Assembly (NCBI GenBank): GCA_029068165.1
Contig: JAIEDA010000018.1
Coordinates: 3,076-67,075, forward strand
Length of the DNA stretch: 64,000 nt
Reading direction: 5' to 3'
From: Clostridia bacterium
GTDB taxonomy: Bacteria; Bacillota; Clostridia; Christensenellales; UBA3700
Part shown: positions 31,639-38,560 of the stretch, one piece after another
Numbering within the stretch: the first letter of the stretch is position 1
Layout: the number at the start of each line of letters is the position of its first letter
Translations under genes and position numbers: made by a program
The notes under the pieces: generated by a model
Database searches by the model: none
Seen by the model: only the letters and a program-made list of their open reading frames with translations
Told to the model about the DNA's origin: nothing

Positions 31639-32388
31639 ATGAGACAACCTATAATTGCAGGAAACTGGAAAATGAACAATACTATCGCGGGCACGAAAGC
31701 TCTTTTGACCGAGCTTATTCCGCTCGTAAAGGACGCAAAGGCTGAAGTCGTAGTTTGCGTTCCTTATACAAACATCGCGGCTGCTGGCGAACTTATCAAA
31801 GGCACGAATATCAAGCTCGGCGCTGAAAACGTACACTGGGCTGAAAAAGGCGCATTCACGGGCGAAATCAGCGCGGATATGCTCGTAGAGCTTGGCGTTG
31901 AGTACGTAATTATCGGACACAGCGAACGTAGACAGTACTTCGGCGAAACCGACCAAACCGTAAACGCTAGAGTAAAAGCCGCTCTTGCTAAGGGTCTTAA
32001 GCCTATTATTTGCGTGGGCGAAACTCTTGACGAAAGAGAGAACGGTTCAGTCGAGGAAGTGCTCGTAAGACAAACCACCGAGGCATTCAAGGACGTTGAC
32101 AAAGATCAGTTGGAGAATATCGTCATCGCTTACGAACCCGTTTGGGCAATCGGCACGGGCAAGACCGCTACCGCTCAGGACGCTAACGATACTATCGCTA
32201 TTATTAGAAACACTATGGCAAAACTCTATTGCCCCAAGTGCGCTCAAGAAAAGGTTAGAATACAGTACGGCGGCAGTATGAACCCCAAGAACGCTTCCGA
32301 GCTTATGGCTATGGAGCAAATCGACGGCGGACTTATCGGCGGAGCTTCGCTTAAAGCCGTAGACTTCTCGCAAGTCGTAAAATATTGA
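31639..32388 (+). CDS. tpiA: triose-phosphate isomerase
   Basis: IAGNWKMN, IIGHSERR, AYEPVWAIGTG and GGASL. Confidence 0.95.
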   Translation: MRQPIIAGNWKMNNTIAGTKALLTELIPLVKDAKAEVVVCVPYTNIAAAGELIKGTNIKLGAENVHWAEKGAFTGEISADMLVELGVEYVIIGHSERRQYFGETDQTVNARVKAALAKGLKPIICVGETLDERENGSVEEVLVRQTTEAFKDVDKDQLENIVIAYEPVWAIGTGKTATAQDANDTIAIIRNTMAKLYCPKCAQEKVRIQYGGSMNPKNASELMAMEQIDGGLIGGASLKAVDFSQVVKY

Positions 32389-32537
32389 TAGGCATACGAA
32401 AAGCACGACGAAAAGTAAATAGGTAAAATTATCTATTTGCTATGGAAATAAAAACCGTAACGCGACAAAGAAGAGAGAAAGAAATTTTTCTCTTCTTTCA
32501 ACGCGAGCGGCGGCAAAAGTTTAGATAGAGGTAAAGT

Positions 32538-34073
32538 ATGAAATTTACAGGTTTGATAATAATGGACGGATACGGGATAAACGAGTTTGGCGAAAACAAC
32601 GCTATATCCCAGTCGACTTCTCCCGAAGTTCTTAAGATTTTGAAAGAGTATCCGAATACGCAGCTTAGCGCCAGCGGTTTGGCGGTAGGTTTGCCCGAGG
32701 GACAAATGGGCAACAGCGAAGTAGGACATCTCAATATCGGCGCGGGAAGAGTAATTTTCCAAGACTTGCCGAAGATTACCAAGGCTATTCAAGACGGCGA
32801 TTTTTATACCAACAAAGCGCTCCTAAACGCTATGCAAAACGCAAAGAAGAAGGGAAGTCTACACGTAATGGGTCTTGTATCCGACGGCGGAGTACACTCG
32901 CACCTATCGCACTTATTTGCTACGGTAAAAATGGCGAAAGAAGTCGGCGTAAAACAAACGTATATCCACTGCTTTATGGACGGAAGAGACGTGTCGCCGA
33001 CGAGCGGCAAGAGCTTCGTTGAGCAAGTGTCTAATTACTTAAAAGACTTAGGCTACGGCAAAATCGCTACGATAAGCGGAAGATTTTACGCAATGGACAG
33101 GGATAATATTTGGGAAAGAGTTTCCAAGGCTTATAGCGCGCTTGTCGACGGCGAGGGCGTTAAGGAAGTTAATCCCGTCGAAGCTATGCAAAACAGCTAC
33201 GACAAAGGCGTTACGGACGAATTTATGCTCCCAACCGTTATTTGCGAAAATGGCAAACCAGTCGCTACTATCAAAAAAGGCGACAGCGTAATCTTCTTCA
33301 ACTACCGCCCCGACAGAGCTAGACAAATTACGAGAAGCTTTATCTTTGAGGACTTTACCGGCTTTGAGAGAAAGAAAGGATTTTTAGCTCCGGTATTCGT
33401 GTCGTTTACGACCTACGACGCAACTTTTGAGGGAAAACTTGAAGTAGCTTTCAAGAAAGAGCAGTATAAAAACACTCTTGGAGAATATCTTGCAAGCAAG
33501 GGCATTAAGCAGTTTAGAATTGCCGAAACGCAAAAATACGCGCACGTTACGTTCTTCTTCAACGGCGGCGTGGAAGCTCCGAATAAGGACGAGGATAGAA
33601 TACTTATCGATTCTCCTAAGATCGCGACTTTTGATATGAAACCCGAGATGAGCGCTTACGAAGTATGCGATAAAGCGTGCGAAGTAATTAAAAGCGGCAA
33701 GTACGGCGTTATGATTTTGAATTTCGCCAACTGCGATATGGTAGGTCATACCGGAGTAATGAGCGCGGCGCAAAAGGCAGTGAAAGTAACCGACGAGTGC
33801 GTTCGCAAAGTGCTTGACGCAATACTGGAAGTCGGCGGACAGGCGCTGCTTACGGCTGACCACGGCAACTGCGACTATATGTTCGATCCTGTGACCAAAG
33901 CTCCGTTTACGGCTCACACGACCAACCCCGTGCCGTTTGCAGTAATAGGCGCTGACGGCGTAAAGGCTTTGGCTGGCGGCGGGAAGCTTTGCGACATCGC
34001 TCCGACTATGCTCGATATTATGGGAATAGAAATACCTAAAGAAATGACGGGCAAGAGCCTTATCGTTAGGTAG
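32538..34073 (+). CDS. gpmI: 2,3-bisphosphoglycerate-independent phosphoglycerate mutase
   Basis: IIMDGYG, MGNSEVGHLNIGAGR, DGGVHSH and TADHGN. Confidence 0.95.
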   Translation: MKFTGLIIMDGYGINEFGENNAISQSTSPEVLKILKEYPNTQLSASGLAVGLPEGQMGNSEVGHLNIGAGRVIFQDLPKITKAIQDGDFYTNKALLNAMQNAKKKGSLHVMGLVSDGGVHSHLSHLFATVKMAKEVGVKQTYIHCFMDGRDVSPTSGKSFVEQVSNYLKDLGYGKIATISGRFYAMDRDNIWERVSKAYSALVDGEGVKEVNPVEAMQNSYDKGVTDEFMLPTVICENGKPVATIKKGDSVIFFNYRPDRARQITRSFIFEDFTGFERKKGFLAPVFVSFTTYDATFEGKLEVAFKKEQYKNTLGEYLASKGIKQFRIAETQKYAHVTFFFNGGVEAPNKDEDRILIDSPKIATFDMKPEMSAYEVCDKACEVIKSGKYGVMILNFANCDMVGHTGVMSAAQKAVKVTDECVRKVLDAILEVGGQALLTADHGNCDYMFDPVTKAPFTAHTTNPVPFAVIGADGVKALAGGGKLCDIAPTMLDIMGIEIPKEMTGKSLIVR

Positions 34074-34113
34074 GATCGAGTTTATTTGGAAATATAAGAC
34101 GTCATAATTTCTT

Positions 34114-34146
34114 AGCGGAACGCAGTTGCGTTCCGCTATATTTTTA
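34114..34146 (+). terminator. intrinsic terminator after gpmI (copy 1 of a duplicated hairpin)
   Basis: AGCGGAACGC-agtt-GCGTTCCGCT followed by ATATTTTTAT. The same stem recurs at 35880-35903. Confidence 0.8.
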
Positions 34147-34238: not shown

Positions 34239-34267
34239 TTGACATAGAAGGAAAATAATAGTATATT
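34239..34267 (+). promoter_or_regulatory. promoter of the queuosine-salvage cassette
   Basis: TTGACA (34239-34244), a 17-nt spacer, then TATATT (34262-34267). The candidate riboswitch starts about 8 nt later. Confidence 0.55.
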
Positions 34268-34274
34268 TGACAGT

Positions 34275-34334
34275 AGGCAGTTCGTAACCATCCTGCCTTG
34301 CGGTAAATTATCGCAAAATCAAAACTAAGGAGAG
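34275..34334 (+). promoter_or_regulatory. candidate preQ1 riboswitch aptamer (preQ1-I-like, with an inserted hairpin)
   Basis: P1 is GGCAG/CTGCC with a 12-nt loop, UUCGUAACCAUC (compare UUC...UAC in Bacillus and UCG..UAAC in Thermoanaerobacter aptamers). The A-rich tail is CAAAACUAAGGAG. An extra hairpin, TTGCG-gtaaattat-CGCAA (34298-34316), separates P1 from the tail. A yhhQ context lies downstream. Confidence 0.45.
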
Positions 34335-34365
34335 AATATAAGCATAGGCAAACTATGCGTATTTT

Positions 34366-34388
34366 GCGTCCTTAGGGGCGCTTTTTTT
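34366..34388 (+). terminator. expression-platform terminator/SD sequestrator
   Basis: GCGTCC-ttag-GGGCGC followed by T7, abutting ATG 34389. The segment TCCTTAG (34369-34375) is complementary to CTAAGGA (34325-34331) in the aptamer tail, giving an alternative antiterminator pairing. Confidence 0.5.
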
Positions 34389-35084
34389 ATGGAAAGATAC
34401 GGAAAGATTAGAGAAAAGAGAAAAAGAGAAATAGTTTTGCTTAGGGGTAGCGGTTGCGCGTACAAAAAATGCGCGTTTTGCGACTATTACTTAGATAGTT
34501 GTAAGAGCGAAAAGGAAAACTTCCTTCTAAATTCCCAAGTATTGCAAAAAGTAGACGGCGAGTTTTCCGATTTGGAAGTCATCAACAGCGGTTCGGTCTT
34601 TGAGCTTGATAAAGACACGCTTGATTTACTAAAGACGATTGCCAAGGACAAGGGTATAAAGACGTTGCATTTCGAAGCGCATTATTTGTACAGGGATAGA
34701 ATACCCGCGCTTAGAAAAGAGTTTGGCGACTTTGACTTGAAGCTGAAGCTCGGTTTAGAAACCTTTGATTACGACTTTAGGGAAACGGTACTCAAAAAGG
34801 GTATTGCGGAAAAAGACCCGCTTGCTATTGCCAAGAATTTTGACGAGGCAAACTTTTTGTTCGGTATAAAGGGACAAACCGTAGAAAGTATGAAAAGAGA
34901 TATAGAGTTGGGGTTGGAGCGTTTCGAACGGATATGCGTCAACATAATGTGCAACAACTCTTCGAGTATAAAACCTGATAGAGAAGTTGTCAGCGCTTTT
35001 GTAAACGAACTTTATCCGAAATACGTCAACGATTATCGTGTGGATATATTGATAGAAAATACTGATTTTGGAGTAGGAGAATAA
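34389..35084 (+). CDS. small radical-SAM-like protein, candidate queuine lyase (QueL-like)
   Basis: 231 aa. The Cys triad GCAYKKCAFCDY is near the N-terminus with CX4CX2C spacing. It starts 1 nt before yhhQ, behind the candidate preQ1 leader. Confidence 0.45.
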   Translation: MERYGKIREKRKREIVLLRGSGCAYKKCAFCDYYLDSCKSEKENFLLNSQVLQKVDGEFSDLEVINSGSVFELDKDTLDLLKTIAKDKGIKTLHFEAHYLYRDRIPALRKEFGDFDLKLKLGLETFDYDFRETVLKKGIAEKDPLAIAKNFDEANFLFGIKGQTVESMKRDIELGLERFERICVNIMCNNSSSIKPDREVVSAFVNELYPKYVNDYRVDILIENTDFGVGE

Positions 35085-35085
35085 A

Positions 35086-35820
35086 ATGAACGAATTTTTA
35101 TTGATAATTTCAGTAGTAGTGATATTCGCGGCTGATTTGCTTGCTTACAAATTTTTCGGCAAGGGCGGATTGTACGTAATGAGCGCGGTCGCAACCATAT
35201 TTGCCAACGTAGAAGCTTTGATACTTGTCAAAGCGTTTGGGATGGAGCAAACCTTGGGCAATATCCTTTTTGCTGCTACGTTCTTGATTACGGATATTTT
35301 ATCCGAGTGCGAGGGAAAGAAATGCGCAAACAAAGCGGTATACATAGGAATTTTCTCGCAGGTGTTTTTCCTGTTGCTTTCGCAAAGCTGGCTGCTATAC
35401 AAGCCGGTAGCTGCGGACGACGAGTTTTTCGCGGCAATCCAGTTGATATTCTCCAATACGCCGAGAATGATTCTAGCTTCGCTTGCAGTCTACGCAATAA
35501 GCCAAATATTCGACGTATGGCTATATCATAAATGGTGGGATTTTACCGAAAAGAAATTCGGCAACCGTCGCGGTTACCTATGGCTTAGAAACAACGGCTC
35601 GACTTTGGTCAGCCAGCTTATAAATACGCTGTTCTTTACGCTGTTTGCATTTATTGGAACATACGACTTCAAGACGTTGCTGTCGATTTTCGGCTCAAGC
35701 TACATAATCTTTATAGTGACGTCGTTGCTTGATACGCCTGCGGTTTATTTGGCGCGTATGATTAAGGAGAAGGGCGGTAAGAAGTTGCAAAAGGCGGATA
35801 CCGACGTTGCGCAACAGTAA
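35086..35820 (+). CDS. yhhQ: queuosine-precursor transporter (YhhQ/VUT family, DUF165)
   Basis: 244 aa with about 6 TM segments. ATFLITDILSE, YAISQIFDVWLYH and NGSTLVSQLINTLFFT are characteristic of YhhQ. Confidence 0.8.
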   Translation: MNEFLLIISVVVIFAADLLAYKFFGKGGLYVMSAVATIFANVEALILVKAFGMEQTLGNILFAATFLITDILSECEGKKCANKAVYIGIFSQVFFLLLSQSWLLYKPVAADDEFFAAIQLIFSNTPRMILASLAVYAISQIFDVWLYHKWWDFTEKKFGNRRGYLWLRNNGSTLVSQLINTLFFTLFAFIGTYDFKTLLSIFGSSYIIFIVTSLLDTPAVYLARMIKEKGGKKLQKADTDVAQQ

Positions 35821-35879: not shown

Positions 35880-35910
35880 AGCGGAACGCGACTGCGTTCC
35901 GCTATGCATT
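35880..35910 (+). terminator. intrinsic terminator after yhhQ (copy 2 of the duplicated hairpin)
   Basis: AGCGGAACGC-gact-GCGTTCCGCT followed by ATGCATTTTA. Confidence 0.7.
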
Positions 35911-36022: not shown

Positions 36023-36922
36023 ATGTACAACCCTACGCTTACGACTTTTATAGCGGTGGCGGAAAACGGAAGCTTTACCAAAGCTGCGGATATTCTTTTC
36101 ATTACGCCCACTGCCGTGATGAAGCAAATCAATACTTTGGAAGAAAGACTGGGTATTACTTTGTTTGAGCGTACCAACCACGGTTTGCATTTGAGCGAAG
36201 CGGGCAAGAGTTTTTTGCAGGACGCAAGATATATCAAAGACTATTCCGATAAGGCAATAGAAAAGGCGAAAGATATAGACGACAAATCAAAACAGCAATC
36301 GATAAGAATCGGCACGTCGATTATGACGCCCGTCAAATTTTTGATGGATGAATGGGTGGAAATTCAAAAGTTTAATCCTCGCTTGAAAATCGAACTCGTT
36401 CCGTTTGAGAACACTCCCATAAACTCAGTGGAAATACTCAAAAACCTTGGCAAACATATTGACGTTGTCGCGGGACTTTACGACGATTCCTTCCTTGAAG
36501 AGCGAGGTTGCAAAGCGGCGTATTTATACGATAAGAAATTGCTGTTTGCCATTCCCGTAATTCATCCGCTTTGCGAAAAGTCGAAGATAGAAATCGCGGA
36601 TTTGAAAGGGCAAAAAGTATTGATGATACGCAAGAATTGGAATGAGTACGTAGACCGACTTAGAGAGTACCTAACGACAAACGGCGTAATCGTGGAAGAA
36701 TTCAATTCCTTCAATTTGGCTGCGTATAATAAAGCTGCGCAGGAGAACGCTCCTATAATTACCGTCGAGGGGTGGCAGGACGTGCATCCGCTTCTCAAAA
36801 TTATTCCCGCCGATTGGGAATATAGCGTTCCGTTTGGGATTTTGTATTCGCCAACGCCGACCAAACAGGTAAAAGATTTTATAGATACGCTTATAAAAAT
36901 AAATAAAGATAAGCAAGCTTAG
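36023..36922 (+). CDS. LysR-family transcriptional regulator
   Basis: The N-terminal wHTH LTTFIAVAENGSFTKAADILFITPTAVMKQINTLEERLGITLFER, with a substrate-binding C-terminal domain. Confidence 0.9.
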   Translation: MYNPTLTTFIAVAENGSFTKAADILFITPTAVMKQINTLEERLGITLFERTNHGLHLSEAGKSFLQDARYIKDYSDKAIEKAKDIDDKSKQQSIRIGTSIMTPVKFLMDEWVEIQKFNPRLKIELVPFENTPINSVEILKNLGKHIDVVAGLYDDSFLEERGCKAAYLYDKKLLFAIPVIHPLCEKSKIEIADLKGQKVLMIRKNWNEYVDRLREYLTTNGVIVEEFNSFNLAAYNKAAQENAPIITVEGWQDVHPLLKIIPADWEYSVPFGILYSPTPTKQVKDFIDTLIKINKDKQA

Positions 36923-36963
36923 CAAGCAATATTCTACTTTTTAAATTTATTTGTATAAACTTT

Positions 36964-36982
36964 TAGTTCATACACTGAACTA
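36964..36982. promoter_or_regulatory. perfect palindrome, candidate LysR-type binding site
   Basis: TAGTTCA-tacac-TGAACTA lies between the LysR gene and the AKR gene. It fits the T-N11-A LysR-box architecture. Confidence 0.5.
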
Positions 36983-37056
36983 TTTTGAAATTCCTATTTT
37001 GCTTTCAATAGGTTATACTTATACCGTAAAGAAAAGCAATTAGGAGGAACTTTTTT

Positions 37057-37914
37057 ATGGAATACGTAACTTTACACAACGGCGTTAAAATGCCCAAACT
37101 CGGATACGGAGTGTATCAGGTAAGCAAAGAAGAATGCGAGCGTTGCGTACTCGACGCGCTGAAAGTAGGTTACCGTCATATCGATACTGCGCAAAACTAT
37201 TTCAATGAAGAAGAAGTCGGAAACGCTATCAAAAAATCGGGTATTGCTCGCGAAGAGATTTTTATTACGAGCAAAGTTTGGATTGAGCATTACGGCTATG
37301 AACAAACGAAGAAATCAATCTACGAATCTATGCAAAAATTGAAAGTAGACTATATAGACCTAATGCTCTTGCATCAGCCGTTCAACGATTATTACGGCGC
37401 GTGGCGCGCTTTAGAGGACGCTTACGCCGAGGGAAAAATCAAGGCTATAGGAATATCCAACTTTTATCCCGATAGAATGGTCGACCTTGCGTCGTTTGCG
37501 CGTATCAAGCCTATGGTCAATCAGGTGGAAACGCACCCGTTTAATCAACAAATCGAAGCGCAAAGCTGGATGAAAAAATACGGTATCCAAATAGAGGCGT
37601 GGGCGCCGTTCGGCGAAGGTCGCGGCGGAATGTTCGCCAACGAAACTATTGCTAAGATAGCCGCAAAATACAATAAGAGCGTCGCGCAGGTTATACTTCG
37701 CTGGGAGTTGCAACGAGATATCGTCGTAATTCCTAAGTCGACTCACATTGAGAGAATGGAAGAAAACTTCAACGTATTTGATTTTACGCTATCAAAAGAG
37801 GATATGCAGGTAATGGCAAGCCTTGACAAAAAGCAAAGTTCTTTCTTTTCGCATACCGACCCCGCTATGGTCGAATGGTTTGTGAAAATGATTGACGAAC
37901 GTAGAAAAAAGTAG
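37057..37914 (+). CDS. aldo/keto reductase
   Basis: GYRHIDTAQNY, SKVW, LMLLHQP, GISNF and IPKS, the canonical AKR catalytic-tetrad context. Confidence 0.9.
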   Translation: MEYVTLHNGVKMPKLGYGVYQVSKEECERCVLDALKVGYRHIDTAQNYFNEEEVGNAIKKSGIAREEIFITSKVWIEHYGYEQTKKSIYESMQKLKVDYIDLMLLHQPFNDYYGAWRALEDAYAEGKIKAIGISNFYPDRMVDLASFARIKPMVNQVETHPFNQQIEAQSWMKKYGIQIEAWAPFGEGRGGMFANETIAKIAAKYNKSVAQVILRWELQRDIVVIPKSTHIERMEENFNVFDFTLSKEDMQVMASLDKKQSSFFSHTDPAMVEWFVKMIDERRKK

Positions 37915-37924
37915 GTGATAAAAG

Positions 37925-38560
37925 ATGACGGCGAAGAAATTTTTTAAGATATTTATTTGTATTTTTACGTGCGCGCTTGTAGCGACGCTTGCGGTGGCTT
38001 GCAGCGGCGATGACGGCGGAGATAATCCTTCGTCGGGCGATTTTGTGAGTTCGTCCGGAGTGAACGGGGAAAGCAACGTTCTAGTCGTATATTTTTCGGC
38101 GACGAACAACACTGAGAACGTAGCCAAAAATATCGCTGAAGCAACGGGTGGAGCGACGTTTGAATTGATACCCGTCAATCCCTATTTGAGCGCTGATCTA
38201 AACTACAACAATTCAAATAGCCGCGTTTCGCGAGAGCATAACGACGAAAGCTTAAGAAATATAGAATTAGTATCTACTACCGTAGAAAATTGGGAAAGTT
38301 ACGATACGATATTTATCGGCTATCCGATATGGTGGGGAATTGCGGCTTGGCCCGTAAACGGCTTCGTTAAGAACAACGACTTTACCGGCAAAACGGTTAT
38401 TCCGTTTGCGACGTCGGCAAGCTCCGGTCTTGGGCAAAGCGGAACGTTGCTAGCGGAAATGGCAGGTACGGGAAATTGGTTGACGGGACGGCGTTTTTCT
38501 TCAAGCGCGTCGCAAAGCTCCGTTACGTCTTGGTTGCGGGAACTTGGCTATGTAAAGTAA
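37925..38560 (+). CDS. flavodoxin-fold protein with a lipoprotein signal peptide
   Basis: Lipobox LAVAC at residues 22-26, then a Gly/Ser linker. The flavodoxin motif VLVVYFSATNNTENVA and IFIGYPIWWG follow. Confidence 0.75.
   Translation: MTAKKFFKIFICIFTCALVATLAVACSGDDGGDNPSSGDFVSSSGVNGESNVLVVYFSATNNTENVAKNIAEATGGATFELIPVNPYLSADLNYNNSNSRVSREHNDESLRNIELVSTTVENWESYDTIFIGYPIWWGIAAWPVNGFVKNNDFTGKTVIPFATSASSGLGQSGTLLAEMAGTGNWLTGRRFSSSASQSSVTSWLRELGYVK

Follow-up and report, generated by a model that had tools for sequence, protein, structure and literature searches.

A predicted riboswitch-controlled queL-yhhQ operon for queuine salvage in a member of the Clostridia

We analysed a stretch of 64,000 nucleotides from a member of the Clostridia (here referred to as the window) and found that two adjacent genes in it very probably form a riboswitch-controlled queuine salvage operon, queL-yhhQ. 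Judging from its homology and its modelled fold, the 231-aa product of the first gene is an orthologue of the queuine lyase QueL, with predicted lyase activity. The pair represents a known enzyme family and a recurring module, and it is preceded by a putative riboswitch that standard Rfam-based annotation misses. The features of the operon are compiled in Table 1.

Table 1. Predicted features of the queL-yhhQ operon, in window positions.
Feature	Coordinates	Strand	Details and basis
Promoter, sigma-70-type, predicted	34239..34267	+	TTGACA, 17-nt spacer, TATATT; consensus scan 11/12
Putative preQ1-I-type aptamer with inserted hairpin	34276..34330	+	weak RF00522 match, conservation, covariation
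Intrinsic terminator, predicted	34366..34388	+	GCGUCC-UUAG-GGGCGC and U7 tract; terminator scan, MFE fold
queL, predicted radical-SAM queuine lyase orthologue, 231 aa	34389..35084	+	homology and fold match to 6P78
yhhQ/QPTR, queuosine-precursor transporter, 244 aa	35086..35820	+	PF02592, TIGR00697 above cut-off
Operon-closing stem-loop	35880..35903	.	AGCGGAACGC-GACU-GCGUUCCGCU; terminator scan

The predicted promoter looks strong, and boxes resembling TTGACA/TATAAT are found at the equivalent relative position in many related loci. The stop codon of queL (TAA, 35082-35084) is separated by one base from the ATG of yhhQ at 35086, which is preceded by AGGAG. The initial annotation, made from the letters of the DNA, had already placed the end of the first gene 1 nt before a clear YhhQ/VUT gene, and this description was correct. 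The 1-nt gap and the AGGAG look like an arrangement typical of translational coupling.

Sequence and predicted structure of the QueL protein

The first gene had been described as an open reading frame with a single N-terminal CX4CX2C cluster, and this was confirmed. Residues 22-33 of its product, GCAYKKCAFCDY, contain Cys23, Cys28 and Cys31 in C-x4-C-x2-C spacing, and these three residues are the predicted ligands of a [4Fe-4S] cluster. All three are retained without exception by 27 close homologues and 40 diverse relatives (26-68% identity), so this spacing is not a product of chance. Searching the PDB sequences with phmmer, we found chain A of 6P78, deposited as "Queuine lyase", with an E-value of 1.8e-51 and 178 bits. 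The alignment runs from end to end, covering residues 1-231 of the window protein and residues 23-251 of the 6P78 chain, and a profile built from the 40 diverse relatives finds the same entry at E 1.4e-83. The motif of 6P78 is CIWGKCSFCDY, with identical CX4CX2C spacing. Because 6P78 and the 40 relatives share the motif, the unusual cysteine spacing and the small size are traits of the QueL family and not anomalies. Both had been flagged as deserving verification, and both are real; they are the norm for QueL and no sign of novelty.

We then modelled the protein with AlphaFold2, using the alignment of diverse relatives, and obtained a mean pLDDT of 97.5 and a pTM of 0.92. In Foldseek this model matched 6P78, whose title reads 'queuine lyase from Clostridium spiroforme bound to SAM and queuine', with TM scores of 0.96/0.96 and an rmsd of 1.2 Å over 231 columns at 44% identity, without notable insertions or deletions. 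The next matches are generic radical-SAM enzymes, such as SuiB, HemN and lipoyl synthase, with TM scores of 0.5-0.6. Since many radical-SAM structures are matched at a Foldseek probability of 1.0, the fold is that of a radical-SAM protein even though the PF04055 profile misses it. The proposal of the initial annotation that the gene encodes a queuine lyase or a relative of one is therefore upheld by both the phmmer and the Foldseek matches, and what it says of QueL in C. difficile agrees with the literature (PMC11570991, PMC11477304, PMC11130926).

Curated family models, by comparison, contributed little. A Pfam scan of the 231-aa protein with E-values up to 1 matched no family, including Radical_SAM PF04055; one close homologue has a precomputed PF04055 match. 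Among the NCBIfam models, the sole match and the only curated model with any similarity was RaSEA TIGR01210 (E 1.1e-10), which covers residues 12-155 only and scores 41.3 bits against a cut-off of 212.15. RaSEA is a radical-SAM protein of archaeosine biosynthesis that acts, together with ArcS, on a 7-deazaguanine derivative on tRNA. Its model is about 313 positions long, and the window protein, far below the cut-off, is not a member. As neither Pfam nor NCBIfam names the protein, the assignment to QueL rests on PDB homology and fold. In NCBI records the homologues are called just 'radical SAM protein' or 'hypothetical protein'. A specific function can thus be assigned to a gene that databases leave with such names, and a family model, which neither Pfam-A nor NCBIfam holds for QueL, would fix many annotations.

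At 50% identity the family falls into 462 clusters (E up to 1e-3), a good part of them fragments, and it appears to be compact, without visible paralogous split. In the host genome queL is single-copy and intact; all family-invariant residues are retained, and the close homologues are 64-79% identical. We also considered Cys183 and Cys188 as ligands of an auxiliary cluster and rejected them, for they are invariant among the close homologues only and are absent from the wider family and from 6P78. The sequence gives no sign of a second Fe-S cluster in the protein.

Queuosine pathway of the host

The host genome (1.67 Mb, 32 contigs, 96% complete) contains tgt (517 bits), queA (422 bits) and queH (216 bits). 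The contig of the window also carries queH, about 35 kb past the window's end; tgt and queA are located on a different one. Conversely, queC, queG, QueT and IU_nuc_hydro (the QueK-type hydrolase) were not found in this 96% complete genome, nor was queF, whose weak match is the GTP cyclohydrolase I FolE. The statement of the initial annotation that the window holds no tgt, queA or queG is in line with these locations. A search for Qng1 (PF10343) gave no match in the host, a negative of little weight because the control likewise matched in no genome.

The host is hence a predicted preQ1 auxotroph, having tgt, queA and queH, with queC and queF not found. A class of auxotrophs with "QueA, QueG/H and TGT only" is common in the gut (PMC6593275), and the host matches it because tgt, queA and queH are present and genes of preQ1 synthesis were not found. 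Such a host must acquire preQ1, and queuine would therefore be useful to it only after cleavage. Published work assigns the cleavage of queuine to preQ1 to QueL (PMC11570991, PMC11130926, PMC12632869). The host Tgt retains DEC and GLSVGE, which we take to mark the bacterial preQ1-type and not the queuine-type pocket (Cys158 and Val233 in Z. mobilis TGT).

In the host's order, QueL was detected in 9 of the 151 sampled genomes, and QueC exceeded its cut-off in just 4 of the 151, too few for a comparison of QueL presence with QueC absence to be informative. One genome of the host's own family (G107) carries both QueL and an above-cut-off QueC, so the lyase is not confined to preQ1 auxotrophs.

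These results also bear on the substrate. Since neither QueK nor Qng1 was found, the host could probably use only the free base and not the queuosine nucleoside, unless another hydrolase exists. A nucleoside-accepting lyase would be useful in such a genome, and 44% identity to 6P78 leaves room for a shifted substrate; moreover, RaSEA, a distant relative of the family, has another 7-deazaguanine adduct as its substrate. The protein might accordingly be a QueL-family enzyme that cleaves another 7-deazaguanine compound (queuosine nucleoside or nucleotide, epoxyqueuine or another N-substituted preQ1) and still yields preQ1 or a related base. We regard this as improbable, as the fold matches the queuine-bound 6P78 almost perfectly, the lyase is paired with a family of base transporters, the QueL family is compact without visible paralogous split, and the genome holds a single copy. 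Cleavage of queuine itself is the preferred reading.

The transporter and its pairing with queL

The product of yhhQ, the sole copy in the host genome, matches PF02592 Vut_1 with an E-value of 2.7e-45 (154.9 bits against a cut-off of 27.2) and the queuosine precursor transporter model TIGR00697 with 159.1 bits (cut-off 50.95). It shares these two families with the QPTR proteins of E. coli and Chlamydia trachomatis and differs from the former in failing the E. coli-type equivalog NF008406, where it reaches 24.9 bits against 252. The substrates of QPTR proteins vary, the one of E. coli carrying preQ0/preQ1 and not queuine, and the one of Chlamydia queuine only (PMC11130926). Import of queuine by the YhhQ of the window is suggested only by its pairing with QueL.

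To describe this pairing, we collected 80 related loci from species-representative genomes, with the close-homologue alignment as query and QueL proteins that are 64-79% identical; they include Ruminococcus bromii, Pseudoruminococcus massiliensis and Acetatifactor. A YhhQ homologue lies immediately 3' of queL in 77 of the 80 loci, and at least two of the three loci without it stop at a contig edge. The cluster listings of diverse relatives comprise Succinispira, Leptotrichia, Clostridium sp. and several MAGs, and the distant queL relatives (33-52% identity) likewise adjoin Vut_1 or QueT. The order is Vut_1 then QueL in Leptotrichia, QueL then Vut_1 in Succinispira and in P0159, and QueL then QueT in Clostridium sp. 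No C. difficile orthologue was present among the members of the two homologue clusters listed. Pairing with a queuosine-precursor transporter is conserved both in the close loci and in the distant members of the family. The retention of gene order and tight spacing in 77 of the 80 loci suggests that the lyase has been kept for a function coupled to that of the transporter.

The same conservation, together with the intact gene, its complete set of family-invariant residues and its 64-79% identical close homologues, makes it highly improbable that the operon chiefly imports preQ1 through YhhQ and that the radical-SAM protein is an accessory or decaying gene that takes no part in cleaving queuine here, for all that the E. 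coli-type QPTR carries preQ0/preQ1 and not queuine (PMC11130926), that imported preQ1 alone could sustain a preQ1 auxotroph, and that most relatives, by the above counts of QueL and QueC in the order, manage without the lyase. Two observations, a fold near-identical to that of the enzyme with queuine bound and a gene pair that is tightly conserved, speak against both this explanation and that of a shifted substrate, and queuine salvage by QueL and YhhQ is retained in what follows.

A preQ1-I-type leader with an inserted hairpin

In the leader of the operon, a preQ1-I-type aptamer appears to precede a terminator, and the two would make up a riboswitch. Its P1 stem has 5 bp, with GGCAG (34276-34280) paired with CUGCC (34293-34297), and encloses the 12-nt loop UUCGUAACCAUC (34281-34292). 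Between P1 and the A-rich tail, which ends in CUAAGG (34317-34330), an additional hairpin is inserted at 34298-34316, and a further small hairpin (34342-34358) separates the aptamer from the terminator. The 5-bp P1, the 12-nt loop near the model consensus, the A-rich tail ending in CUAAGG and the terminator platform are all shared with RF00522, and the covarying hairpin between P1 and the tail is what distinguishes the window leader from it. As a result of this insertion the RF00522 score falls to 12.8 bits, and because the gathering score is 39, Rfam-based annotation misses the leader. In Rfam scans of the window region and of 17 + 4 related loci, no preQ1-I, -II or -III was reported at gathering level. 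A preQ1-III leader, a type reported in Oscillospiraceae (PMC11477304), was also considered and was dropped, there being no gathering-level Rfam match in the window region or the related loci. The initial annotation had spoken of a preQ1-like leader. Such a leader is there; a canonical Rfam match does not come with it.

Comparison with other loci was informative in three respects. First, the aptamer core was found 5' of the lyase gene in 72 of the 80 related loci, and it occurs in one copy only in the host genome. Second, the core also occurs without the insertion: L070, which lacks it, reaches 35 bits (E 1.1e-5) with the RF00522 model covered in full, and the queL-queT locus of Clostridium sp. 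(L089, 3790-3835) has the core GACAG, UUCGAAACCAUC, CUGUC, AUAAACAAAACUAUGG without insertion, a core also unreported at the Rfam gathering threshold. Third, we aligned 73 leaders, taken from the regions 5' of the match in L006-L085, in which P1 and the loop are nearly invariant. The inserted hairpin, by comparison, ranges from about 10 to 60 nt across related leaders, and 7/7 of its pairs change on both sides. It covaries with a score of 0.321, compared with an average of 0.138 for shuffles; 0/500 shuffles are as high, and the slid controls all score lower.

An apical sub-motif, CC(A/G)AUAGG flanked by AUA/UUU, was noticed in many of the inserted hairpins (columns 55-62; for example in L010, L011, L017 and L055). 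Its conservation raises the possibility that the tip takes part in a tertiary contact.

The tail CUAAGGA (34325-34331) is complementary to UCCUUAG (34369-34375), which belongs to the 5' arm and the loop of the terminator, whose U-tract extends as far as the queL start codon. Of 52 leaders examined, 19 show this complementarity, either exactly or over 5/6 bases, and the terminator type is kept in related loci. The logic of the leader would be that of a classical preQ1-I transcriptional OFF switch, where the anti-terminator is inferred from the complementarity. Known targets of preQ1 riboswitches include queL, queK, yhhQ and queT (PMC12519234, PMC11477304).

The 3' arm of the terminator, GGGGCGC (window 34376-34381), lies 10 nt 5' of the queL ATG. 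As a speculation, this arm could double as the ribosome-binding site of queL, accessible only when the leader adopts the anti-terminated fold; apart from it, nothing 5' of queL obviously resembles a Shine-Dalgarno sequence.

Proposed function and relation to known systems

We propose the following scheme for the operon. Queuine from the gut, and perhaps preQ1 as well, would enter the cell through YhhQ. QueL would hold a [4Fe-4S] cluster at Cys23, Cys28 and Cys31 and, with a radical derived from SAM, would break the C-N bond that joins the cyclopentenediol ring of queuine to its aminomethyl group, and preQ1 would be released. Tgt would insert this preQ1 at position 34 of tRNAs with a GUN anticodon, and QueA and QueH would complete queuosine. 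Accumulated preQ1 would bind the aptamer, so that the CUAAGG tail is sequestered, the terminator forms and the operon is turned off; without ligand, the tail would pair with the 5' arm of the terminator and permit transcription to read through.

The closest known system is that of C. difficile. QueL and the C. difficile queK-qrtT-queL operon were reportedly presented by Yuan et al. in 2019 (cited in PMC11570991 and PMC11477304). With the QueL represented by 6P78 and C. difficile, the window protein shares full-length homology, the fold at a TM of 0.96, the CX4CX2C motif and a length of ~230 aa, and its gene likewise stands beside one for a queuosine-precursor transporter, under a preQ1-I-type riboswitch. 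In C. difficile QueL converts queuine to preQ1 (PMC11570991, PMC11130926), and the operon is given as queK-qrtT-queL behind a preQ1-I riboswitch (PMC11477304). The two operons differ in three points. The transporter of C. difficile is the ECF S-component QrtT, whereas that of the window belongs to YhhQ/QPTR; C. difficile has QueK, whereas none was found in the window operon or the host genome; and the window riboswitch has an extra hairpin. The window operon looks like a leaner version of the C. difficile module, one that uses another transporter family and does without the hydrolase.

That riboswitches act on queL and yhhQ has already been described in general terms (PMC12519234), and knowledge of the chemistry is unchanged by the present finding. 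Its value lies elsewhere. The finding indicates that the two-gene queL-QPTR cassette without QueK is a common salvage module, and it would explain how this small-genome gut member of the Clostridia, with tgt, queA and queH only, can make queuosine, by recycling queuine from its neighbours or from its own host. In addition, the 73 aligned hairpin-bearing preQ1-I variants could extend the Rfam model. In the literature searched, outside of which lies the main survey (McCown et al. 2014), no description of the hairpin insertion was found.

We tentatively suggest a broader reading, which may well prove wrong. The leader might represent an undescribed architectural subclass of preQ1-I, invisible to Rfam, that marks a minimal queL-QPTR cassette in Clostridia, the gene pair occurring also in Negativicutes, Fusobacteria and a fourth lineage, and QPTR might then serve as a queuine importer in free-living gut bacteria and not just in intracellular pathogens. 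A bolder version, in which the inserted hairpin alters the ligand preference, for example towards queuine, is less likely.

Flanking genes and hairpins

Judged by eye from their translations, the upstream neighbours (31639-34073) resemble triose-phosphate isomerase and cofactor-independent phosphoglycerate mutase, and the downstream neighbours (36023-38560) resemble a LysR-type regulator, an aldo-keto reductase and a flavodoxin-like lipoprotein. By the same inspection, none of the genes in the two regions is queuosine-related.

The stem-loop that closes the operon has a sister copy at 34113-34138, which closes the gene upstream of the operon. The stem-loops at both ends (34113-34138 and 35880-35903) are near-identical, with the form AGCGGAACGC-NNNN-GCGTTCCGCT, and hairpins of this type (34115-34136, 35881-35902) occur twice in the window against 0 expected. 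We considered them as boundaries of a cassette and rejected this idea, since the stem type is present 43 times genome-wide. These 43 GGAACGC...GCGTTCC hairpins of the 1.67-Mb genome are mostly followed by T-rich tails, and the stem looks like the organism's usual terminator.
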